This document shows, one piece after another, positions 3,533 to 48,939 of a DNA stretch of 49,123 bases. Under the pieces are notes generated by a model. The model had not been told where the DNA came from. It ran no database searches and saw only the letters and a list, made by a program, of their open reading frames with translations. Where the stretch lies: contig CAUTMU010000001.1 of the NCBI GenBank assembly GCA_963539535.1, positions 1-49,123 of the forward strand, written 5' to 3'. Position 1 is the first letter of the stretch, and each line of letters begins with the position of its first letter. A program made the translations under genes and the position numbers. The DNA comes from an uncultured Acholeplasmataceae bacterium. Its GTDB lineage: Bacteria > Bacillota_I > Bacilli_A > Acholeplasmatales > Acholeplasmataceae.

Positions 3533-5758
3533 ATGGAAGTTAAATTACAAGGTCTTACAAAAATTTTCGTCGACAAACAAAAACGTGAAACAACAGCAGT
3601 TGATAAATTATCTATCACAGTTGGCGATGGTAAGCTAATTGGTCTACTTGGACCTTCTGGTTGTGGAAAATCAACCACCCTATACATGATTGCTGGACTA
3701 CATGAACCGTCTGGCGGAAAAATTATTTTTGGCGATGAGGATGTTACTCCGCTTTCTGCCGACAAAAGAGGAATTGGTTTAGTTTTCCAAAACTACGCCC
3801 TGTATCCTCACTTAACAATCCGTGAAAACATTATGTTTCCACTACAAAACATGCACGTGCCTGCCAACGAAATTGACGATATGGTAGAAGAAGTTGCACG
3901 TCTTGTTGGTATTGCTAACTTACTTGAACGCAAACCTTCTCAACTTTCTGGTGGTCAACAACAACGCGTGGCCATCGCTCGTGCGTTGGTTAAAAAACCA
4001 AAAGTATTGCTACTTGATGAACCGCTTTCTAACTTAGATGCTCGTCTGCGTCTACAAATGCGTGAAGAGATTAAACGTATTCAAAAAGAGACCGGAATTA
4101 CTGCAGTTTTCGTTACACACGACCAAGAAGAAGCGATGTCAATATGCGACGAAATCGTGTTAATGGAAGCCGGAGTTGAACAACAACGCGGTGTTCCACA
4201 ACAAATTTATGACAACCCTGCTAACTTGTTTGTTGCGAAGTTCTTAGGTACTCCACCAATTAACTTATTTAAAGCACATATTAAAAAAGACCGTGTGTTT
4301 ATTGGAGATGAAGACATTCTTTCTGCCAAAGGCGCAAAGGCTGTAGTTAAATCTTGGGCTGAACTAAAACAAAATCACCCAGTAGTAGACCGAGACAACT
4401 CAGATGTAACTTTGCATATCGCGGGTTGTGGTCAACTCAAAGCAGAAATTGAACCGCTACTTTCTGAGTTTTCTAAAATTGCAGGTGGCTTCCTTTATGA
4501 CTTTACTTTAAACGGTGCAACTGAAGGTTTCACTTTAGTTCAAGGTAACCGTCGTAAGGCTCCGAAAAAAACTAAAGATTTAGCTGTGGCTAAATTAAAT
4601 CAAAAGATAGAATACAAAAATTATCAAATTGACTACTACCAAGCAAAAATCGCCAGAACTGAAACGCAAATCGTGGAAGTTAAAGCAAACAAAGATTTTA
4701 TTGACGAAGTTAAAATCACTAAACTTGAACAAAGAATTCAAAAATTAGAACAAGCAATTGGAACCGCGAAGGGTAAAATCAAACTACTTCAAGAACAAAT
4801 TCAAACTATTGAAGCAGACCGCTCTCCATACATTGACCCTCGTTTCCACCTTGGTTTGGTAAACCGTGAACTTAACCCTAACTTTGAACGCGCAACTAAA
4901 CGCTTTACTCGCCGTTTCACTGCTAAAGCCGTAGTTCCGGTAGTTGCTCCAAACTCACCACTTTCTGAGCTTTCTTCTGCAACCCTTAAAGCAATTTTCC
5001 AAAAGAAATTAACTAAATGGGACAAACTAATTGACACAACCCTTCCTGAAAACATTGATTTCATGAAGAAATCAATCCACACAGTCCTACACCACAAACG
5101 CAGTGGTGTTAGAACTCTTGCTTTCCAAAAACTAGACATTATTCGTCTACCTAAAAAAATCTTTGGAGTAACTTTGCCAACTCTACACGAAACTACTGTT
5201 CAAAACAACGATGAGTTAATTAAAGCAATTTCTGAAAACCCATTGGCAATTGGTTTCATTCAATATGACTTACTTAAAGAATCTGGACTTAAAGAACTTA
5301 AAGTCAACGGCCAAAGCGCAACTGATGAAGGTGTGCGCACAGGCTCTTACTTCTTTGCGTCAGTTTCAACAATCTTGGCATGTCAATATCCAATTGTAAT
5401 TCCTGACAAAATTGCGGCTGCTTTTCTTGACTTTATTAAAACTAAAGAAGGCGAAGCAATTACTGCTAAACACTCAAAAATGTATCCAGACAGAAACTAC
5501 TTAGTTGGTATTCGACCAGAAGCCTACACAGTAGACAAAGAAAATGGTTGTTTGACTTTAAATTATCAATATTTTGAGTCAATTGGCCGAGACCTTACTT
5601 TAATCGCTGCCCATCCTCAAGCTACTAACCGTACATTTAGAGTAATTCTTTCTGATGTTAACGACTCTAAGAAACTAAAAGACGGCAAAGTTAAGATGTC
5701 TTTGGATTACTCAAAAGTATTCGTCTTTGACGAAGAAACTGGCGAAAGGATTATCTAA
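3533..5758 (+). CDS. ABC transporter ATP-binding protein, MalK/UgpC/MsmK type, 741 aa with a roughly 390-aa insertion in the C-terminal regulatory domain
   Basis: Walker A GPSGCGKST, signature LSGGQQQR, Walker B LLLDEPLS, H-loop THDQ. The MalK-type C-terminal end reads GIRPE...VFVFDEETGERI. The insertion is described under findings. Confidence 0.9.
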   Translation: MEVKLQGLTKIFVDKQKRETTAVDKLSITVGDGKLIGLLGPSGCGKSTTLYMIAGLHEPSGGKIIFGDEDVTPLSADKRGIGLVFQNYALYPHLTIRENIMFPLQNMHVPANEIDDMVEEVARLVGIANLLERKPSQLSGGQQQRVAIARALVKKPKVLLLDEPLSNLDARLRLQMREEIKRIQKETGITAVFVTHDQEEAMSICDEIVLMEAGVEQQRGVPQQIYDNPANLFVAKFLGTPPINLFKAHIKKDRVFIGDEDILSAKGAKAVVKSWAELKQNHPVVDRDNSDVTLHIAGCGQLKAEIEPLLSEFSKIAGGFLYDFTLNGATEGFTLVQGNRRKAPKKTKDLAVAKLNQKIEYKNYQIDYYQAKIARTETQIVEVKANKDFIDEVKITKLEQRIQKLEQAIGTAKGKIKLLQEQIQTIEADRSPYIDPRFHLGLVNRELNPNFERATKRFTRRFTAKAVVPVVAPNSPLSELSSATLKAIFQKKLTKWDKLIDTTLPENIDFMKKSIHTVLHHKRSGVRTLAFQKLDIIRLPKKIFGVTLPTLHETTVQNNDELIKAISENPLAIGFIQYDLLKESGLKELKVNGQSATDEGVRTGSYFFASVSTILACQYPIVIPDKIAAAFLDFIKTKEGEAITAKHSKMYPDRNYLVGIRPEAYTVDKENGCLTLNYQYFESIGRDLTLIAAHPQATNRTFRVILSDVNDSKKLKDGKVKMSLDYSKVFVFDEETGERII

Positions 5759-6714
5759 TGCAACTGCGTGTTGATGCACGAAGAAAACTAAAAATCTGGT
5801 TTCAAAACAACAAGGGTTGGGTGTATCTACTTCCAATCTTGACCTTAATGGTAATTTTTACCTTCTACCCCTTAATTAAAACCATTTTGATTTCTTTTGA
5901 CCCAACTTTCCGCCGAGATATCCAAACGCTTAGCCCTGGTTCTTTTAGTTTTGACAACTACCGTGCGCTTTTTGCTGAACACTCAGATTTTGGCCTGGCT
6001 TTAAAAAACACAGCGCTTATAGTGTTCGTAACAGTTCCACTTTCTACAATGATAGCGCTTGGTATTTGCGTGTCTTTAATGTCGGTTAAACGCATTCGTT
6101 CGTTTTTTCAAACTATTTTCTTCTTGCCATATATTACCAACACTATCGCGATTGGTTTAGTGTTTGCTGTACTTTTTGACTATCAATCTGGTCTTGTCAA
6201 CTCATTTTTAGGCCTATTTGGTATTGGTAAAACTAACTGGCTAAATCCAGCTGCGGTTGGACAACACGGCTATCCAGCGGCTACAGATGGTGCAATGCGT
6301 GCAGTTACCTTGTTTTACATCACCTGGTCAGGACTTCCTTTTAAAATCTTGATTTTTATGGGAGCACTTCAAGGAATTAACAAGCAATACTACGATGCTG
6401 CTAAAATCGACGGAACTTCTTCTTGGCGAACTTTTTATAAAATTACAGTTCCACTAATTTCTCCAATGATTCTGTATGTTGTAATTACTTCACTAATCGG
6501 AGCCTTCAAAACATACGCAGCGGTTATCGGTCTATTTAACGACCCCACTCTTCGTGCCCGCATGAACACTGTAGTTGGTTATGTTTACGACAAACTTGCC
6601 GATAGTGGCTCTGGCTACGCCCAAGGTGCGGCCGGCGCTGTGGTGCTTTTCTTAATTATCCTGGCGCTTACTTTCGTAAGTACTTGGGCATCTAAGAAAA
6701 AGGTACACTACTAA
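5758..6714 (+). CDS. ABC transporter permease (MalF/UgpA-like, CUT1 family)
   Basis: Multi-TM protein with EAA loop YYDAAKIDGTSSWRTFYKITVPL. The start overlaps the preceding stop (TAATG). Confidence 0.85.
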   Translation: MQLRVDARRKLKIWFQNNKGWVYLLPILTLMVIFTFYPLIKTILISFDPTFRRDIQTLSPGSFSFDNYRALFAEHSDFGLALKNTALIVFVTVPLSTMIALGICVSLMSVKRIRSFFQTIFFLPYITNTIAIGLVFAVLFDYQSGLVNSFLGLFGIGKTNWLNPAAVGQHGYPAATDGAMRAVTLFYITWSGLPFKILIFMGALQGINKQYYDAAKIDGTSSWRTFYKITVPLISPMILYVVITSLIGAFKTYAAVIGLFNDPTLRARMNTVVGYVYDKLADSGSGYAQGAAGAVVLFLIILALTFVSTWASKKKVHY

Positions 6715-6731: not shown

Positions 6732-8174
6732 ATGAATGAAAGAATTGATGTTAAGAAAAAACTAGTCTATCAAAAAATTAAGTCAACCTCGCAAAAAACT
6801 GTCGCCATAATCTTTTTGACTATTATGGCTTTAATGATTATCGTACCTTTTTACTGGATGTTAAATACTTCTTTTAAAAACGAATCTGAAGTCCTTGAAG
6901 AACCGCCAACTCTCTATCCTCACGCCTGGACTTGGAAAAACTACTCATACGCTTTTAACGGAACAAGACTGACCAACATTCGTTTACTTCAACAAAAACT
7001 TAAAGAATACGAAGGTCCAAATGGAGTTGTGGCTGTTGCTAAAAAAGAACGCGACAAAATTGCTTTAACTGACTTAGAGAAAACCAAGTTAGCAGCGCTT
7101 TTAAAAGGCGATCCTAAAAACCTATATACAAACGTCTACTACACACAAGCACTTGAACCCTATATTCTTGATAACTCTAAATATGCATATCAGGCATATA
7201 AAGACAAATTAGTTGAAAAAGAAAAATTAAATGCTGAATTTAAAGAGGCTAAAACTAAAGTTCAAAAGGCTAAAATTCAGGTTCAATTAAACAAAATTAG
7301 TAAGTATCTTGATGAGTTTTCTCAAAAATACAACGCTGATTTAGTTAAATTTGCAAGTTGGAAAGATGAACAAATTTTTGCGCCAGACTACTTGAAACTA
7401 AGAAACAAAGACTTAGCCTACCAAGTTGCTGACCGTAAATACCAAAATCTAGCGAGTGAATTAAAGGGTTTACCTGGCAAAATTGAAGGTGAAGAAAACG
7501 CGCCTTCTGACCGTTTCACTAGATACCTGTTAAACACCTTAATTGTAGGTATTTCTTCAACTATTGTTGGTACCTTTATGTCAATCATCGGTGCCTTTGC
7601 GCTATCTCGTTTGGAATTCAAAGGTCGCGACACTATCTTTAAAGTGATGCTGTCTACCATGATGATTCCAGGTGAAATGATGGTAATCACAAACTATGGA
7701 ACAGTTTCTCGCCTTGGCTGGACTGACCAAGCACCTGCTTTCTCAGGGGCTCCATTCCTCGCAATGACGGTGCCGTTCTTAGTCACAGTCTTTCACATTT
7801 ACTTAATTCGCCAAAACTTCCGACAAATTCCAAATGAACTTTATTATGCTGCCAAAGTTGACGGAACTTCTGACTTTAAGTATCTATGGAAAGTCATGGT
7901 CCCACTTGCCAACTCATCAATTATCACCATTACAATTTTGAAACTAATGGGTTCTTGGAACGCCTATATCTGGCCAAACTTAGTAGCCGGACAAAACTTT
8001 AAGCTAATTACTGTATGGTTGCGTTCTGCGTTTGTAGACCAAGAGTCTAACCGAATCGCTGTTGAGCGCCAAATGGCGGCAACTGTTATAGTCTTAATCC
8101 CTCTACTGCTTGTCTTTATCTTCCTTCGTAAATATATCATGCGCGGTGTTGCCCGCGGTGGAACTAAGGGTTAG
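6732..8174 (+). CDS. ABC transporter permease (MalG/UgpE-like) with a roughly 185-aa Lys/Glu-rich insertion after TM1
   Basis: EAA loop YYAAKVDGTSDFKYLWKVMVPL. N-terminal TM, then WTWKNYSYAF, then an insertion before DRFTRYLLNTLIVG. SD AAGAGG upstream. Confidence 0.85.
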   Translation: MNERIDVKKKLVYQKIKSTSQKTVAIIFLTIMALMIIVPFYWMLNTSFKNESEVLEEPPTLYPHAWTWKNYSYAFNGTRLTNIRLLQQKLKEYEGPNGVVAVAKKERDKIALTDLEKTKLAALLKGDPKNLYTNVYYTQALEPYILDNSKYAYQAYKDKLVEKEKLNAEFKEAKTKVQKAKIQVQLNKISKYLDEFSQKYNADLVKFASWKDEQIFAPDYLKLRNKDLAYQVADRKYQNLASELKGLPGKIEGEENAPSDRFTRYLLNTLIVGISSTIVGTFMSIIGAFALSRLEFKGRDTIFKVMLSTMMIPGEMMVITNYGTVSRLGWTDQAPAFSGAPFLAMTVPFLVTVFHIYLIRQNFRQIPNELYYAAKVDGTSDFKYLWKVMVPLANSSIITITILKLMGSWNAYIWPNLVAGQNFKLITVWLRSAFVDQESNRIAVERQMAATVIVLIPLLLVFIFLRKYIMRGVARGGTKG

Positions 8175-8202: not shown

Positions 8203-9879
8203 ATGAGAAAATTATTTTTAGCACTTATCGCTATCTTCTCAACACTATTTTTAACTGCATGTGGCAAATACGATGTTACTTTTTGGCATACATTTGGTAA
8301 AAAAGACATCACTGCCATTGAAAAAAGATTAAAAGATTTTACTAAAAAAACTGGAATCACCGTTAAACTTGAACAAAAGGGCGGATACCAAGACATCAAA
8401 GGTGCGATTGACAAAACTCTTTCTACTAAAAATCGCCCTAACTTAGTCATCGCTTATCCAGACCACGTTGCTTCATTTAACGAAAACCGCAAAAATGTTC
8501 TTGACTTAACTAAGTTCATCAATGAAGGAACTCAACTTCAAAAAAAATACATCAGCGACCAAGACTTTAAAAAAGATTGGGATGAACAATTTTACGATTT
8601 CGTAAAAGAGTCTCCTCTTTCTGAAAAGGGAATCTACACTACTCCGTTTGGTCTTTCTACTGAAGTTATTCTTTACAACAAAGAACTTGCTGCAGAAATT
8701 CCTGACTTTACTGAAAAAGTAAAAACTTGGGAAGGTATTTGGGAAATGGCTAAAAAATACCGTGGAGATCACACTGAAAAATTTGACAAATTAGTTGACC
8801 TTCCTGATCCAAAAGAACCTGGCAAAACTAAAAAACAATTTGAACGTACAGCTGTGTTCGGATATGACTCAGACGCTAACATGCTAATCACTATGTCAAA
8901 ACAATACGGTCTTCCTTACACTGATTTTGTGAAAAAGAACGGTGAACTTAAAGGGGATGCTTTTTTCCACGACACTACACAAAATGCACAATTAGTAGAA
9001 ATGTTAGACACTCTAAAAGGTTATGCTGCTCAAAACTTTTTTACTACTGGTGCAACTTGCGGAAACAAATATAACTCAACTGCGTTTAAAAACAAACAAA
9101 TAGTGTTCACTATCTCTTCATCTGGTGGAGTTGGCTATAACATTCCAGATAAAAACAAACCATTTGAAGTAGGTATGCTGCCACTTCCTCAACCTGAACT
9201 TCAACTTACAAAAACTCAATTAAAAGAAGCAAACGATCTACTTAAAGCAGACCCAAATAACGCAGACTTCAAAACTCTTCAACACAACGCACAAGCAGCA
9301 TACACCGCTGCGAAGGCTAAATACCCTAACTTAAATGAAGACAAACTATCTGGCGCTTCTATTTTCCAAGGTCCTTCAATTGCGATGCTAGACCAAGCAA
9401 AAGAAGGTGAAGACTCATATAAAAATGTTTCTAACCAAAAAGCATATGAGGTATTTAAATTCTTATTCAGCAAGGAAAACGTACGCGACTTTTCTTTAGC
9501 AAAAGGCTACGCAGCTCCTCGCAAAGACGTATTTGAAACCGAAGAAATTAAAAACTTTATTCAAGAAAATAAAACTATAAGCAATACACTTGAAGGCTTA
9601 GTTGCTAAATCTTTTGAAACTATCAAAGACACACTTGACAAGAAAAACACTTTCCAATCAATTGCTTACGAAAAATCTTCAAATGCCCGCACAGTTGCGC
9701 TAAACATCATTAAAAACGTATTAACTGACGCAGAAGTTGGCAAAGAAATTGTCACAAAAGAAGAAAGCAAAGACAAAAAACCTTTTGAGGCGTACAACAG
9801 TGTTAAAAAAGAAGACCGTCTAAAAAGAATTCAAGCATTACTTCAGTTTTACTACGATAAACACTGTAAGTACGAATAA
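8203..9879 (+). CDS. Lipoprotein, probable extracellular solute-binding protein of the ABC transporter (558 aa)
   Basis: Signal peptide plus lipobox LTAC (Cys20). Last gene of the operon before a terminator. Loosely resembles family-1 sugar/phosphoester binding proteins (WHTFGKK..., YPDHVA); assignment rests mainly on context. Confidence 0.65.
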   Translation: MRKLFLALIAIFSTLFLTACGKYDVTFWHTFGKKDITAIEKRLKDFTKKTGITVKLEQKGGYQDIKGAIDKTLSTKNRPNLVIAYPDHVASFNENRKNVLDLTKFINEGTQLQKKYISDQDFKKDWDEQFYDFVKESPLSEKGIYTTPFGLSTEVILYNKELAAEIPDFTEKVKTWEGIWEMAKKYRGDHTEKFDKLVDLPDPKEPGKTKKQFERTAVFGYDSDANMLITMSKQYGLPYTDFVKKNGELKGDAFFHDTTQNAQLVEMLDTLKGYAAQNFFTTGATCGNKYNSTAFKNKQIVFTISSSGGVGYNIPDKNKPFEVGMLPLPQPELQLTKTQLKEANDLLKADPNNADFKTLQHNAQAAYTAAKAKYPNLNEDKLSGASIFQGPSIAMLDQAKEGEDSYKNVSNQKAYEVFKFLFSKENVRDFSLAKGYAAPRKDVFETEEIKNFIQENKTISNTLEGLVAKSFETIKDTLDKKNTFQSIAYEKSSNARTVALNIIKNVLTDAEVGKEIVTKEESKDKKPFEAYNSVKKEDRLKRIQALLQFYYDKHCKYE

Positions 9880-9988: not shown

Positions 9989-11254
9989 ATGAAAAAACTA
10001 ATTTTAATGCTAACAACTCTGTTAACTTCTGTTTTTTTAGTAGCCTGCCACAAAGCGTTTTTTATTGCTAAACAAGAGTCAGATATCATAATTCATAAAC
10101 TAATTATGGGCAGAAGTTATGAAAACTCCGTGCTGGAACTGAAAAACATTTCAAACTCCGCGAAAAACCTAAAAAACTACTCAATTAGATATTTTAAAAA
10201 ATCAAGCCAATTTAGTGAACTAACTCTTCCGAACAAGGAACTAAAACCTGGCGAGTTTTTTTCAATTGGCAACACTGGGGCAACTCTTGTAAAAACTAAG
10301 GGCGACACTTCTAGTGGCAACTCAGGTAAAAAGGTTGAAGTTGATTTGCTTCAAAACAAAATAACTTTTGGCTATTCTAAGAGACTTGAATTAAAAAAAG
10401 AAGCCAAAACTATTGATGTATACGGTCAAAAAGACGCTAAAAACACTTTAGCCGAAGAGGCTTCTCTTTATCGTTTTGCTGAGTTTGAAAAAAATTTAGG
10501 TGAAGCTCACCTAAACTTCGTTTGGTGTTTGTTTAAAGTAGAGTACTACAATGCACTTGGCAAAAACTGCCCACTAACCTACGAAGAAGTTCTAAAAGGT
10601 CCAAAACCTGACTTAACTAAGTTAGTTGAAGACAAAGTAAATGCAGGTCAAAACGCCAAAGAAGCTTTAATTCAAAATATCTTAAACAAAACTCCTGGCA
10701 ACGGCGAAATTATTCCGGTTGACCGAGTTAGTCTTTACAAAGACGGAGACACAACTGACTTCGTGGTGTCTTTCACAGAAAGCAAAACTGGCAACAAAAT
10801 TGAACATGTACTTCCAACCAGATACGCATATTGTGATACTCCTGAGAAAGGAAAAGGTGTTACGAGACCTGAGCCTTTTGCAAACCAGGCTACCAACTTA
10901 ACTCATGATCTACACGAAAACGCAAAAACTACATACCTGCAAACTATCCCGCGTGGGCAAATTGACGGTAGTTTTGGTCGCTACTTTTTAGTAGTTTGGG
11001 CAGGCAACGATCTTGTTGCATTTAAATTAACCAAAAATGGACTAAATGAAAAACTGCCATCTAGACTAAATATTTCAGATGCAATACTTTACAACGACAT
11101 CCCACTTGAATACTACATTGAAATGGCTTACTACTTTGCTGAGCAAAAACGCCTAAACCTTGCCTATGAATACAACAAAGACCCTTACTTTAACTACAAC
11201 ACAGGTAAATTTAAAAAAGGTCACGAAAACGCAAGGATAAAAACAGTTGAATAA
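9989..11254 (+). CDS. Lipoprotein nuclease: N-terminal lamin-tail-like (LTD) domain plus C-terminal staphylococcal-nuclease (SNase/thermonuclease) domain
   Basis: Lipobox LVAC (Cys20). LTD-like IIIHKL...NSVLELKNIS...LKNYSIRYF...LKPGEFFSIGN. SNase motifs KDGDTTDF, TRYAYCDTPE and DGSFGRYFLVVW align with S. aureus nuclease DGDT, RLLLVDTPE and DKYGRGLAYIY. Confidence 0.75.
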   Translation: MKKLILMLTTLLTSVFLVACHKAFFIAKQESDIIIHKLIMGRSYENSVLELKNISNSAKNLKNYSIRYFKKSSQFSELTLPNKELKPGEFFSIGNTGATLVKTKGDTSSGNSGKKVEVDLLQNKITFGYSKRLELKKEAKTIDVYGQKDAKNTLAEEASLYRFAEFEKNLGEAHLNFVWCLFKVEYYNALGKNCPLTYEEVLKGPKPDLTKLVEDKVNAGQNAKEALIQNILNKTPGNGEIIPVDRVSLYKDGDTTDFVVSFTESKTGNKIEHVLPTRYAYCDTPEKGKGVTRPEPFANQATNLTHDLHENAKTTYLQTIPRGQIDGSFGRYFLVVWAGNDLVAFKLTKNGLNEKLPSRLNISDAILYNDIPLEYYIEMAYYFAEQKRLNLAYEYNKDPYFNYNTGKFKKGHENARIKTVE

Positions 11255-36392: not shown

Positions 36393-37334
36393 ATGAAGAC
36401 GATTAAAGAACTTTTAAAAAAACACAACCGCATTATTATTCACAGACACTCCAAACCAGATATGGACGCAATTGGCTCACAAATGGGCTTAATGCACATA
36501 ATTAAAGAAAACTTTCCAGAAAAAGAAGTCTACGTAGTAGGTGATCACAACAAATTTGACTACGAAAACGCCATGAACGAAATTCCTGACAGTTTTTACA
36601 AAGACTCGCTAGTTTTTATTACAGACGTCGCAGTTTCTTACATGATTTCAGATAACCGCTATTTGTTTGCCAAAGACGTGGTAATTATTGACCACCACGA
36701 AAACAAATCAGATGTAGCAGGAGCACACGTTTATTCTGACCCAACTTACGAGGCCGCGGCTGCTTACGTTTACGATATTGCCAAAAAACTTAAACTAAAA
36801 ATCCCAGCAATAGCGGCTGACTACTTGCTAAACGGAATAATTACCGACAGCGGGCGCTTTCAGTATTTAACTAACGCACCGCGTTTATTTCAAATCGCTG
36901 CGGAACTTACAGCACTAGGTGCAGACCCGCTTAAGTTCTACAAGTGGTTGTATGTAGAAACTCTAGAAGAGCGTCAAACTAAAGCGAAGTTTGCTACTCG
37001 CATGCAAATTGAGGGCTCAGTTGCTTACTTTTTTAACACCAAAGAGTTTTTAGAGTCACTTGGCACTTACGATTTCTTTTCAATTAGCCGCGGTATGGTT
37101 AACTTACTTGCTGGAATTAAAGAAATTCCAATTTGGGCTAACTTCACGTATTCCGCTGAGCAAGACAAAGTAATTTGCGAATTGCGTAGCCGTGAAATTG
37201 AAGTTGTGCATATTGCCAAGAAATACGGTGGCGGTGGACATGCACTGGCTTGCGGCGCAACCCTTGATAACTTTGAAGTGGCAAAAGCCATGATTAAAGA
37301 TTTAAACGAACTAATTTTACAAAATCAAAAATAA
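36393..37334 (+). CDS. DHH/DHHA1 family phosphoesterase (NrnA-like), copy 1
   Basis: Motifs HSKPDMDAIGS, IIDHHEN and GGGHALACGA. Confidence 0.85.
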   Translation: MKTIKELLKKHNRIIIHRHSKPDMDAIGSQMGLMHIIKENFPEKEVYVVGDHNKFDYENAMNEIPDSFYKDSLVFITDVAVSYMISDNRYLFAKDVVIIDHHENKSDVAGAHVYSDPTYEAAAAYVYDIAKKLKLKIPAIAADYLLNGIITDSGRFQYLTNAPRLFQIAAELTALGADPLKFYKWLYVETLEERQTKAKFATRMQIEGSVAYFFNTKEFLESLGTYDFFSISRGMVNLLAGIKEIPIWANFTYSAEQDKVICELRSREIEVVHIAKKYGGGGHALACGATLDNFEVAKAMIKDLNELILQNQK

Positions 37335-37352: not shown

Positions 37353-38309
37353 ATGGACATTAGTTTAATTTTAAAAAAAATCAAAGAATACGACATTATT
37401 ACAATCTACTCACATAAAAGACCAGACGGAGACTGCATAGGCTCATCACTTGGTCTTAAAAACATCATTGAGACAACTTTTCCCAAAAAACAAGTATACT
37501 CACTGGGCGACCACACACCATATTTGCGTTTCCTTGGAGAACTTGACACACTTGACGACGAAACTATTAAAAAATCTTTAGCGATAGTTGTAGACACTGC
37601 TACTCAAGAGCGAGTTGCAGACCAACGCTTTAAATTGGCTAAAGAAATTATTAAAATTGACCACCACATTGTAATGGATCAATACGGCGACATTAACTGG
37701 GTGCACGAAGAAGCACCAGCGGCTTGTCAAATGATTACTTATTTTCTGTATAAGTTCAGAGACCAACTACTTATCACTAAACAAGGCGCGCAAGCACTAT
37801 ATGCTGGTTTAGTTACGGATTCTGGAGGATTTAGATACCGCGGAGTTACCGAAACTACTTTTCAAATGGCGGCTTTCTTAGTTTCTAAAGGCGCTGACCT
37901 TGAATACGTAGACCGTGAACTTTCTAAAACTACTTTTGCACAACTTAAATACAAAGGCTATCTGCTTTCTAACATCAAACGCTCAAAAAACGGCGTGGTT
38001 TACTTCCTTGCAACTCGTGACATTCAAAAGAAATTTAACTTAACTCAAGAAGACACAGCAGCGGCCATTAACGCCATGGCTGGCATTGAAGGCTGCCCTG
38101 TTTGGGTGCTATTTATTGAACTTGAAAACTCAGTTCGCGTTAGAGTTCGTTCAAACCAAGTAGAAATTGCTTCAGTTTGCAACAAATTCCCTCCAGGAGG
38201 CGGACACGATTTTGCCGCTGGCTGCCACCTGGATAAAATGAAACAACACACAAAAGTAATTGACGCCCTTGACGCCAGAATTGTGGAAGTTTTAAAGAAA
38301 AATAACTAA
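37353..38309 (+). CDS. DHH/DHHA1 family phosphoesterase (NrnA-like), copy 2
   Basis: Motifs HKRPDGDCIGS, KIDHHIV and GGGHDFAAGC. Confidence 0.85.
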   Translation: MDISLILKKIKEYDIITIYSHKRPDGDCIGSSLGLKNIIETTFPKKQVYSLGDHTPYLRFLGELDTLDDETIKKSLAIVVDTATQERVADQRFKLAKEIIKIDHHIVMDQYGDINWVHEEAPAACQMITYFLYKFRDQLLITKQGAQALYAGLVTDSGGFRYRGVTETTFQMAAFLVSKGADLEYVDRELSKTTFAQLKYKGYLLSNIKRSKNGVVYFLATRDIQKKFNLTQEDTAAAINAMAGIEGCPVWVLFIELENSVRVRVRSNQVEIASVCNKFPPGGGHDFAAGCHLDKMKQHTKVIDALDARIVEVLKKNN

Positions 38310-47561: not shown

Positions 47562-47580
47562 ATACGCAAAGGTGGAAAAG

Positions 47581-48939
47581 ATGATTTTTAAAAGAAAAAT
47601 ACATGATAAATTGCTTAAATGGAAAAACGAAAGCCAAGGTAAAACAGCACTACTAATTGAAGGCGCTCGCAGAATTGGTAAATCAACCGCTGTAGTCGAG
47701 TTTGCCAAGGTCAACTACAAAAGTTATATTTTGATAGACTTTGCCAATGAAGACGAGCAAATCAAAAACCTATTTTTTAACAACTTAAACGATTTAGACA
47801 GTTTTTTTATGTATCTTTCTTTGTATAAAAAAACTAAACTTTATGAAAGAAACACACTAATAATTTTTGATGAAGTTCAAAAATTCCCCAAAGCCCGAGA
47901 AGCCATTAAATATTTAGTTAAAGATGGCAGATATGACTACATAGAAACGGGTTCTTTAATTTCTATTAAAGAAAATGTCAAAGGCATCTTGTTGCCTTCA
48001 GAAGAACGAAAAATTAGCATGCATCCAATGGACTTTGAAGAGTTTACTTGGGCAATTGGAAACGACCAAATAGTGCCTTTTATTAAAAATGCGTTTGTTG
48101 AAATGAAGCCAATTGACAAGCATATACACGAACTTTTAATGGAAACTTTTAGACTTTATTTGGTTTTGGGTGGTATGCCAAAAGTCATCTCTACTTTTTT
48201 AAAGGAAAATAAGCAGTTTAAAAGTTGTTTAGATGATAAAACCGACATTTTAGAAACTTACCGTGGCGACATTTTCAAAATAGAGCGAACTTACAGAGAA
48301 AAAGTGTTAAATGTTTTTGATCAAATTCCTAGTTTTTTGGCACAATACGAAAAACGGATTAAATTCGCTCAGCAAGGCAGTGCTGCTAGAAGCAAAAACT
48401 ATGAAGATGCTTTTGCCTGGTTAAAAGACTCAAAAATTTGCAACATTTGTCCAGCAGTAACAGATCCTAATATTGGACTTACTTTATCTGAATCAAGTAG
48501 TTACTTAAAATGCTACATAGGAGACACAGGTCTACTTTTGGCCAAAACTTTTTCAGATAAAGAAAGTGAAAAAACTCAAATTTACCTTGATTTACTAAAC
48601 GACAAACTATCTATTAACAAGGGCATGTTTTTTGAAAATATAGTCGCCCAGATTTTAACTGCAAACGGACACAAACTTTATTTTTATAGTCATTATTCAA
48701 AAGAAAAAAAGAGAAACGACATTGAAGTTGATTTTATAATCACAAGCAATGAACCTTTTGGCAAAATCACCGCAATTGAAGTCAAATCAGCGAAAAACTA
48801 TAAAACCACATCACTAAATAAGTTTAAAGAAAAGTTTTTGTCAAGAGTTGGCAAGTGTTATATTATTCATCCTAAAAACTTACATGTTCGCGAAGATGGA
48901 GTAATTTGTATACCTGCTTATATGGCGATCTGTCTTTAA
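47581..48939 (+). CDS. AAA+ ATPase with C-terminal PD-(D/E)xK-like nuclease-fold domain (COG1373/DUF4143-type)
   Basis: Walker A GARRIGKST, Walker B LIIFDEVQ, C-terminal DIEVDFII...AIEVKS. ATG 47581 preceded by AAAGGTGG; the ORF-track GTG at 47572 lies inside the SD. Confidence 0.8.
   Translation: MIFKRKIHDKLLKWKNESQGKTALLIEGARRIGKSTAVVEFAKVNYKSYILIDFANEDEQIKNLFFNNLNDLDSFFMYLSLYKKTKLYERNTLIIFDEVQKFPKAREAIKYLVKDGRYDYIETGSLISIKENVKGILLPSEERKISMHPMDFEEFTWAIGNDQIVPFIKNAFVEMKPIDKHIHELLMETFRLYLVLGGMPKVISTFLKENKQFKSCLDDKTDILETYRGDIFKIERTYREKVLNVFDQIPSFLAQYEKRIKFAQQGSAARSKNYEDAFAWLKDSKICNICPAVTDPNIGLTLSESSSYLKCYIGDTGLLLAKTFSDKESEKTQIYLDLLNDKLSINKGMFFENIVAQILTANGHKLYFYSHYSKEKKRNDIEVDFIITSNEPFGKITAIEVKSAKNYKTTSLNKFKEKFLSRVGKCYIIHPKNLHVREDGVICIPAYMAICL

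Follow-up and report, generated by a model that had tools for sequence, protein, structure and literature searches.

The DNA analysed here (the window) is a stretch of 49,123 nucleotides from an uncultured Acholeplasmataceae bacterium (contig CAUTMU010000001.1, positions 1 to 49,123). Within its first quarter lies the operon of an ABC importer, whose ATPase gene is the subject of this report. The gene encodes a 741-residue protein of the MalK/UgpC type in which the regulatory domain (RD) that follows the nucleotide-binding domain (NBD) is split by a complete binding-protein fold of the PstS type, and this fold is itself split by a helical hairpin. The gene and its parts are given below, with residue numbers referring to the ATPase.

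3533–5758, + strand: ABC ATPase gene with nested domain, 741 aa, stop codon included (open reading frame list; ABC_tran and PBP_like_2 matches)
3533–4261, + strand: NBD, residues 1–243 (ABC_tran at residues 24–165, E = 4.8e-37, 128 bits)
4262–4324, + strand: first part of the RD, residues 244–264, three beta strands (OB_MalK match and AlphaFold)
4325–4405, + strand: lead-in of the insert, residues 265–291 (motif W275..K279..P283..N289-S290)
4406–4558, + strand: first PstS-like segment, residues 292–342, with strand 1, helix 1, strand 2 and helix 2 (alignments; predicted local distance difference test score (pLDDT) 92–98)
4559–4840, + strand: helical hairpin rich in Lys, Glu, Gln and Ile, residues 343–436 (AlphaFold helices at 348–389 and 392–428)
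4841–5488, + strand: PstS-like remainder, residues 437–652, with strand 3, the whole second lobe and the C-terminal helices (PBP_like_2 match; colinearity with 4q8r)
5489–5755, + strand: second part of the RD, residues 653–741 (alignment with 2yyz; AlphaFold strands within 656–733, pLDDT about 90)

The NBD motifs are readable throughout: Walker A (GPSGCGKST), the Q-loop, the signature (LSGGQQQR), Walker B (LLLDEP) and the H-loop (THDQ). In Foldseek alignments, this domain is 44–52% identical to solved sugar-importer ATPases (48–52% for e.g. 2yyz and 2it1), and phmmer matched the ATPase to the same two structures with E = 4e-82 and 2e-81, respectively. The start of the RD was matched by OB_MalK, positions 1–24 of 53 aligning with residues 239–262, and AlphaFold predicted RD strands at 244–251, 254–257 and 260–264 with a pLDDT of about 90. 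The RD resumes after the insert, where residues 275–358 of 2yyz align with ATPase residues 655–740. The matches to ABC_tran and PBP_like_2, which an earlier sequence-only reading of this gene had expected, were above threshold; that to OB_MalK remained below the Pfam gathering score (18.5–21.5 bits against 27). Removal in silico of residues 265–652, which correspond exactly to nucleotides 4325–5488, left 353 residues, and residues 3–352 of this spliced protein aligned in one stretch with positions 4–355 of the 357-position UgpC-type model NF008653 (E = 7e-104). Since the spliced protein fits this model from end to end, a whole domain has been inserted cleanly into an ATPase that is complete without it, and the division into an NBD followed by a split MalK-type RD, which had been read from the sequence, is upheld by the ABC_tran, OB_MalK and spliced NF008653 matches alike.

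The NBD motif set, the RD following the NBD, and an operon with two permeases and a family 1/8 binding protein identify this as an ATPase of the CUT1 family. The spliced ATPase scored 347.7 bits against the NCBIfam UgpC cut-off of 432 and was also under the MalK equivalog cut-off, so that the substrate of the transporter cannot be inferred from its ATPase. The reading frame is intact in all 14 of the close genomes in which it could be checked. ABC ATPases are cytoplasmic proteins. No transmembrane or signal segment was detected in this one, its maximum 19-residue Kyte–Doolittle hydropathy being 1.42; as judged from its sequence, the ATPase, including the embedded domain, is soluble and cytoplasmic, and nothing suggests otherwise. 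Because the importer operon has one ATPase gene, the ATPase would act as a homodimer, with the PstS-fold domain present twice per transporter.

That residues 265–652 form an entire domain of the PstS type (PBP_like_2), lying within an RD loop, was confirmed. The match to the Pfam family PBP_like_2 (PF12849) reached 46.1 bits, for a gathering score of 27 (E = 7e-12), with residues 438–635 aligned to positions 59–263 of 267. The insert also matched NCBIfam TIGR02136 (E = 4e-14), with 52.4 bits against a cut-off of 206.6, and scored 15.9 bits against a cut-off of 205 for TIGR00975. A profile of 288 positions, built from eight members of the insert family, matched solved PstS proteins in the PDB (4h1x, E = 4e-25; 4q8r, E = 7e-24; 4gd5, E = 8e-24), 4q8r being colinear with positions 29–284 of the profile, and it matched stand-alone ‘phosphate transport system substrate-binding proteins’ with E-values from 1e-18 to 1e-10. 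AlphaFold modelled the full-length protein with a pLDDT of 87.0 and a predicted template modelling score (pTM) of 0.77, and the insert alone with a pLDDT of 86.8. A Foldseek search with the full-length model was swamped by MalK-type matches and was uninformative on the insert; with the insert model, the first 42 PDB neighbours were all PstS or PhoX (best E = 1.7e-13), with target-normalised TM scores of 0.65–0.81. Thus, the proposal that a type II fold like that of PstS lies inside the RD of a cytoplasmic MalK/UgpC-type ATPase has stood up to domain, profile and structure searches, the predicted structure has the two long hairpin helices, and the motif correspondences with PstS that had been listed for it hold column by column.

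The motifs of the first segment are degenerate, with AGCGQL in place of the canonical AGSTSV and NGATEGF in place of GGGSxAG. Those of the remainder are G-x-x-x-R (GLVNREL), KRSGVR (canonical REEGSGTR) and AIGF. Solved PstS proteins (Clostridium perfringens PBP-1 4q8r/4gd5, Borrelia burgdorferi BB0215 4n13, Vibrio cholerae 1twy and Streptococcus pneumoniae PstS2 4h1x) have the same fold with the same order of elements, and their motifs at every helix N-terminus are recognisable in the insert. The insert differs from PstS in being cytoplasmic, with neither a signal peptide nor a lipobox, in being basic rather than acidic, and in having two additions, a helical hairpin and a lead-in of 20 aa. 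It also lacks the pstCAB partners of PstS, no pst gene being present in the operon or in the 49-kb window.

The hairpin is inserted in the loop between helix 2 and strand 3 of the PstS-like domain. In its second helix the a and d heptad positions are 100% hydrophobic, against 15% elsewhere, and because canonical PstS joins the flanking elements by a short loop, the topology implies that the two helices form an antiparallel coiled-coil hairpin. The sequence-only reading had placed a coiled coil at residues 345–455. A hairpin does interrupt the domain there, but its true extent is 343–436, and residues 437–455 (RFHLGLVNRELNPNFERAT) make up strand 3 of the PstS core together with its conserved S-R motif. 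Hairpin length is invariant in 15 close genomes. Of the nine relatives of the window protein, five (P0008–P0012) have no hairpin and P0004–P0006 have about 20 residues in its place; the hairpin of P0007 is long, yet only 18% identical to that of the window protein. The roughly 60-angstrom hairpin is a feature of the lineage.

The insert was found in 18 species-level metagenome-assembled genomes (MAGs) of GTDB, at 93–96% identity. Among relatives of the ATPase in 5.8 billion protein clusters, the combination of ABC_tran and PBP_like_2 occurred in about ten clusters of 633–748 aa, formed at 90% identity and drawn from ENA, Logan and NCBI. The census depends on assembled data, and all insert-bearing sequences come from MAGs. 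Identity to the window protein is 76–82% in the NBD, 44–55% in the C-terminal part of the RD and 24–54% in the PstS-like parts. The insert is present only in uncultured Acholeplasmataceae, and the orthologous operons of two cultured species, Acholeplasma hippikon and Haploplasma axanthum, lack it; a survey of orthologues, proposed with the sequence-only reading, has in this way yielded both bearers and non-bearers. When 1.84 billion representatives were searched exhaustively by HMMER with the insert as query, only 58 proteins matched at E ≤ 1e-3. The matches that were examined besides P0011 (18, by Pfam or by reading) were all of the PstS type, with single or tandem domains, and no other fusion of the PstS-like domain to an ATPase was seen among the longer HMMER matches, which were all tandem PBP_like_2 proteins. 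A word-indexed search with the insert alone gave just a 97%-identical fragment and one weak PstS, and the family was recovered via the full-length search and the exhaustive HMMER search.

Within the order, the orthologous ATPase is elaborated in at least three different ways. In ATPases of cultured Acholeplasma (P0020, P0026, P0097 and P0117), which are about 540 aa long, some 180 aa of coiled-coil-like sequence follow directly on FPLENM, within the helical subdomain of the NBD; P0097 is from A. hippikon (locus L021, 8001–9614) and P0117 from A. equirhinis. The H. axanthum ATPase (419 aa) has a shorter version of this NBD insertion, and in P0038 (415 aa) a small insert occupies the RD site at which the PstS-like domain is found. 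Acholeplasma ATPases of 520–555 aa were considered as bearers of a shortened form of the PstS-like insert and were rejected, their extra 180 aa being a coiled coil located elsewhere, in the NBD.

The closest stand-alone relatives of the insert, and its best matches in the exhaustive HMMER search, are lipoproteins with tandem or circularly permuted PBP_like_2 domains (P0123–P0129), of which P0127 is from an Acholeplasma sp. MAG. The lead-in motif (W..K..HP...DNS, 20 residues before the first strand) is invariant in the ten-member family of embedded domains and is found outside it only in these tandem or permuted Acholeplasma-type lipoproteins, where it aligns with SWDSIKASHPVTAQDNS of P0124 and SWDDIKADYPIVDEDNS of P0126. 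The insert is colinear with the central unit (residues 178–451) of the tandem protein P0124. These lipoproteins differ from the insert in being secreted, in having intact GGSTSV, GSG and RDTSSGTR motifs, and in their acidic isoelectric point (pI). In the permuted protein P0126, the equivalent of the C-terminal helix runs straight into the equivalent of the lead-in; the two ends of the insert are contiguous there, and the insert termini should accordingly be neighbours in space, as insertion into a loop requires. The single-unit lipoproteins P0126 and P0127, and likewise 4h1x (S. pneumoniae PstS2), match the insert profile in circularly permuted form, C-terminal half first, and the tandem lipoproteins P0123–P0125 and P0129 hold the unpermuted unit in their middle. 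An unpermuted unit with adjacent termini, held within a tandem lipoprotein, could offer a simple route of excision, and the donor was most likely a tandem PstS-like lipoprotein gene of the same lineage. From the common insertion site, the common lead-in motif and the congruent identity ranks of NBD (76–82%) and insert (24–42%), we infer a single, clade-specific acquisition followed by vertical descent.

Selection on the insert was estimated from 15 close genomes as the pooled ratio of nonsynonymous to synonymous substitution rates (dN/dS); these estimates pool non-independent pairs of closely related genomes. The values obtained were 0.009 for the NBD, 0.035 for the C-terminal part of the RD, 0.131 for the hairpin, and 0.017 and 0.038 for the PstS-like segments a and b, segment a (residues 273–342) including part of the lead-in. 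At a dS of about 0.37, the 15 genomes showed no indels. Purifying selection on the insert is thus strong, and the insert is neither an artefact, nor a decaying remnant, nor a free linker; conservation down to 24–42% identity across the family, together with this selection, disposes of the low-complexity, unconserved linker that had been named as one of the conditions under which the PstS-like assignment would fall.

The ligand site of PstS proteins is described, from a crystal structure, for PBP-1 of C. perfringens, in which nine residues contact phosphate (S11, T12, S13, S41, S59, R125, S129, G130 and T131) and main-chain NH groups donate 5 of the 14 hydrogen bonds (PMC5381212). The equivalent residues in the window protein are C299, G300, Q301, A329, N444, H520, S524, G525 and V526, which keeps two of the nine contacts, and these residues are invariant across the 15 close genomes. 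Within the embedded family, none of the ten members retains T12 or R125, the sole charged contact, and H, Q, A, L or T stands in place of the latter. S11, S41, S129 and G130 are each kept in 9 of 10 members, and 8 of 10 have S or T at the position of S59. The other family members keep 4–6 of the nine contacts, except P0007 with two, which makes the window protein and P0007 the most degenerate of the family at these positions, whereas stand-alone PstS homologues keep all nine (eight in one case). The embedded domains are also basic, with a pI of 8.5–9.5 in 9 of 10, compared with 4.1–7.7 in the stand-alone relatives. The window insert has a pI of about 9.5 and a net charge of +12 without the hairpin, and the NBD and RD of the same protein are near neutral.

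In its contact residues, then, the canonical high-affinity phosphate site of the window protein is dismantled. The family-wide loss of the Arg, the replacement of seven of the nine contacts and the basic charge make classical high-affinity phosphate binding by this protein unlikely, while a weakened anion site is possible in less degenerate family members. In its contact residues, its want of a secretion signal and its scores under the NCBIfam cut-offs, the domain departs from a functional PstS. The sequence-only reading had seen in it a sensor of phosphate or phosphoesters; the structural part of that proposal stands, but the anion-binding constellation of Ser, Thr and Arg is largely absent, an absence that had been named beforehand as counting against the proposal. 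The cleft positions of S11 and of R125-E126 are occupied by C299 and by H520-H521 (codons 4427–4429 and 5090–5095), which are invariant in 15 genomes. These residues lie on opposite lobes and, as a speculation, could together form a metal or redox site.

Downstream of the ATPase gene, the operon continues with the following genes.

5758–6714, + strand: permease 1, 318 aa, UgpA/MalF-like (BPD_transp_1, E = 1.9e-16)
6732–8174, + strand: permease 2, 480 aa, UgpE/MalG-like (BPD_transp_1 at residues 286–473)
8203–9879, + strand: substrate-binding lipoprotein, 558 aa, SBP_bac_8, lipobox LTAC (SBP_bac_8, E = 1.8e-26)
9989–11254, + strand: lipoprotein with a lamin-tail domain (LTD) and a staphylococcal-nuclease-like domain (SNase), 421 aa (LTD, E = 1.5e-6; SNase, E = 1.7e-3)

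The best NCBIfam match of permease 1 was UgpA, at 77 bits against a cut-off of 335. Permease 2 scored 104 against a UgpE cut-off of 297, and the UgpE model matches it only from residue 258 on. Between its first and second transmembrane segments, permease 2 is extended by about 200 aa of hydrophilic sequence rich in Lys and Glu (residues ∼60–260), which should be an extracellular loop. This permease is 480–532 aa long in all five insert-bearing operons and 302–312 aa in two orthologous operons that are free of the insert; therefore, two elaborations of the transporter co-occur on opposite sides of the membrane. The binding lipoprotein gave no sequence match in NCBIfam (including UgpB) or the PDB. 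In the nuclease-like lipoprotein of the window, both the LTD and the SNase matches were under the gathering score, with the active-site spacing R-x4-D-T-P-E (TRYAYCDTPE) visible, and the orthologues at loci L023 and L024 gave confident SNase matches. The order ATPase, permease, long permease and binding lipoprotein holds in 5 of 5 insert-bearing operons, and the LTD protein comes next where the contig continues, in some cases separated from the lipoprotein gene by one more gene; its SNase domain was detected in the window, L023 and L024. The orthologous operons of A. hippikon and H. axanthum have the same gene order. The ATPase, the permeases and the binding protein all fall short of their Ugp equivalogs, and the link to the glycerol-3-phosphate importer Ugp that the sequence-only reading had drawn is weak: the ATPase scores 347.7 against 432 bits, there is no UgpB match, and the operon is linked to a nuclease.

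Just upstream of the operon are two short adjacent open reading frames on the + strand, 1760–2221 and 2368–2673 (153 and 101 aa), which by eye resemble pieces of an AAA_14/DUF4143 ATPase; the first had no Pfam match. If the resemblance is real, they would be a disrupted pseudogene. An intact AAA_14/DUF4143 gene lies at 47572–48939, and another is found upstream of the operon at locus L019. Elsewhere in the window, ten tRNA genes are clustered at 126–1040 on the + strand (Val, Thr, Lys, Leu, Met, Met, Ser, Met, Asp and Phe), three of them with a CAT anticodon. Two adjacent paralogous DHH/DHHA1 phosphoesterase genes lie at 36393–37334 and 37353–38309 on the + strand (313 and 318 aa) and are followed by an MgtC-family gene. 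The pair is of the NrnA or c-di-AMP or pAp phosphodiesterase type and may be relevant to nucleotide or oligonucleotide turnover.

Several known systems share parts of this arrangement. CUT1 ATPases of the MalK/UgpC/MsmX/SugC type (2yyz, 1g29 and 1q12) have an NBD 44–52% identical to that of the window protein and, like it once the insert is spliced out, a complete RD, and their operons likewise encode two BPD_transp_1 permeases and a binding lipoprotein; no described member has a folded domain inside the RD. Mycoplasma nuclease genes form operons with ABC transporters for which uptake of nucleic-acid or nucleotide precursors has been proposed (PMC12115388). By arrangement, the window operon is like those of M. 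pneumoniae (MPN133–136), M. genitalium (MG186–189) and M. hyopneumoniae (the mhp379 region), which likewise combine an SNase lipoprotein with an importer like UgpC/A/E. The ATPases of these Mycoplasma operons are also unusually long.

The nearest precedent for the nested domain is found in CmpC and NrtC, of the cyanobacterial bicarbonate and nitrate importers (PDB 9u9z), which likewise carry a binding-protein fold covalently on the cytoplasmic importer ATPase. In CmpC/NrtC, the domain is appended at the C-terminus, is derived from NrtA/CmpA and so is homologous to the transporter's own receptor, and sits on an ATPase without a MalK-type RD (PMC13287603). Here it belongs to the PstS family, is nested in a MalK-type RD, is unrelated to the SBP_bac_8 receptor of the operon, is interrupted by a hairpin and has a degenerate ligand site. 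There is one such domain per transporter in CmpC/NrtC, on one of the two different ATPase subunits (a CmpC/CmpD heterodimer), but two copies here from one ATPase gene. The CmpC chain superposed poorly on the window chain in Foldseek (root-mean-square deviation 20.9). The CmpC/NrtC domain has a regulatory use in the cell, whereas a regulatory role here is suggested by analogy. Beyond CmpC/NrtC, no description of a PstS-type domain nested in an RD was found in the literature, coverage of which was incomplete, in keeping with the earlier remark that the architecture was not recognisable as a described one. Cytoplasmic sensors with type II binding-protein folds are common in transcription factors, e.g. 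LysR-type regulators; thus, the principle of a cytoplasmic sensor is not itself new.

We think it reasonably probable, by analogy with such systems, that the embedded domain is a regulatory module mounted on the RD that modulates closure of the NBDs. A PstS-type Venus-flytrap domain would have been captured once, in the ancestor of a clade of uncultured Acholeplasmataceae, by insertion into a surface loop of the RD of the sole ATPase of a CUT1-family importer, and in this lineage the flytrap has gained the roughly 60-angstrom hairpin. According to its own state, the flytrap would favour or hinder NBD closure, in a mode comparable to the C-terminal domain of CmpC locking the NBDs or to EIIAGlc bridging the RD and NBD of MalK. 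The RDs of MalK act as the pivot for NBD rotation and dock the regulators EIIAGlc and MalT; EIIAGlc inhibits transport by forming a bridge from one RD to the NBD opposite, and a Lys-rich helix serves it at the membrane (PMC6906923). The regulatory domain of CmpC locks the two NBDs until nitrate binds, while that of NrtC serves chiefly as a hub for recruitment of PII (PMC13287603). Because the canonical site is dismantled, the domain strongly basic and the hairpin gained, the input to the window protein is more likely another anionic ligand, or a protein or membrane partner, than classically bound orthophosphate. Some of the evidence weighs against regulation of this kind. Purifying selection is evidence that the domain is important, but not that its task is to regulate transport. 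Orthologues in Mollicutes tolerate other large insertions, and a structural or stabilising role without signalling is conceivable. Furthermore, most family members retain S11, S41, S59 (or T), S129 and G130, and a phosphate-type ligand is possible in those proteins.

The last point leads to the alternative that the flytrap is a cytoplasmic sensor of phosphate or phosphoesters, closing on inorganic phosphate (Pi) or on a metabolite phosphate such as glycerol-3-phosphate or nucleotides and so trans-inhibiting the importer, its affinity having been lowered to the millimolar range by loss of the Arg. It is well established that Ugp of Escherichia coli is trans-inhibited by internal Pi. Phosphate is the ligand of nearly all PBP_like_2 proteins that have been characterised structurally (PMC10443332), the five contacts just named are kept in 8 of 10 members, and the 5 of 14 hydrogen bonds that PBP-1 makes through main-chain NH groups are independent of side chains (PMC5381212). 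In addition, S-type PstS proteins without the Asp are already of lower affinity (PMC13614923). The nuclease in the operon fits as well, given that the Mycoplasma counterparts are proposed for uptake of nucleotide precursors (PMC12115388), and the cargo may carry phosphate. Set against this are the two of nine contacts in the window protein, with replacements fixed in 15 genomes, the loss of R125 in 10 of 10 members, the TIGR02136 score of 52 bits against 206.6, an ATPase that is not assignable to UgpC and a binding protein that is not UgpB-like, and we regard such a sensor as unlikely. We are similarly doubtful of its more specific form, in which the flytrap would open and close on a cytoplasmic anion (millimolar Pi or a cargo nucleotide or phosphoester) and directly gate transport via the RD pivot of both subunits. 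If true, the phosphorus or nucleotide status of the cell would feed back on nucleic-acid scavenging in a self-contained way, with no separate regulator, in a bacterium of minimal genome, and the module would be a second, independently evolved and topologically different solution beside that of CmpC. A ligand-independent scaffold, acting through dimerisation of the hairpins, docking of a regulator as in NrtC–PII, contact with acidic lipids or stabilisation of the ATPase dimer, would agree with the basic domain and the Lys/Arg-rich loop flanking the hairpin, with the NrtC domain, mainly a PII hub, as precedent, and with the coiled coils that the same ATPase carries elsewhere in other Acholeplasma. 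The two members with a long hairpin, the window protein and P0007, also have the most degenerate sites, at two of nine each, although this correlation between hairpin and site decay rests on two lineages. No partner is identifiable in the operon, and the helix N-termini that cradle the anion (G298, G328, G441, R445, S524 and G525) are conserved family-wide, though possibly for structural reasons; we consider a pure scaffold rather improbable. Finally, all of the sequences come from MAGs, and Mollicute proteins often have lineage-specific insertions, as would suit a chimeric assembly, an erroneous gene fusion or an insertion that is neutral and in the course of being lost. The same architecture, however, was recovered in independent assemblies (18 GTDB genomes and about ten clusters from ENA, Logan and NCBI), with the frame intact in every case, a conserved operon, dN/dS of 0.02–0.04 and no indels. 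An artefact or decaying insertion is accordingly extremely improbable, and the artefact, pseudogene and neutral-linker readings were rejected on the independent assemblies and dN/dS.

Binding-protein folds serving as intracellular sensors on ABC ATPases are known from one family of systems, NrtC/CmpC, whose mechanism was solved recently. A regulatory PstS-type module in the Acholeplasmataceae ATPase would be an independent case, with another binding-protein family, a nested topology, another transporter class (CUT1) and another phylum. For protein engineering, it is a natural example of a flytrap placed in the RD of an ATPase via adjacent termini. The orthologues without the insert, with the insert, and with both insert and hairpin, in which the sites are at graded stages of decay, form a natural series from which it could be learned how a receptor of high affinity, once relocated, is retuned or put to a new use. 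Together with CmpC/NrtC, the Acholeplasmataceae family suggests that evolution has repeatedly captured extracellular receptors and made cytoplasmic regulators of them.

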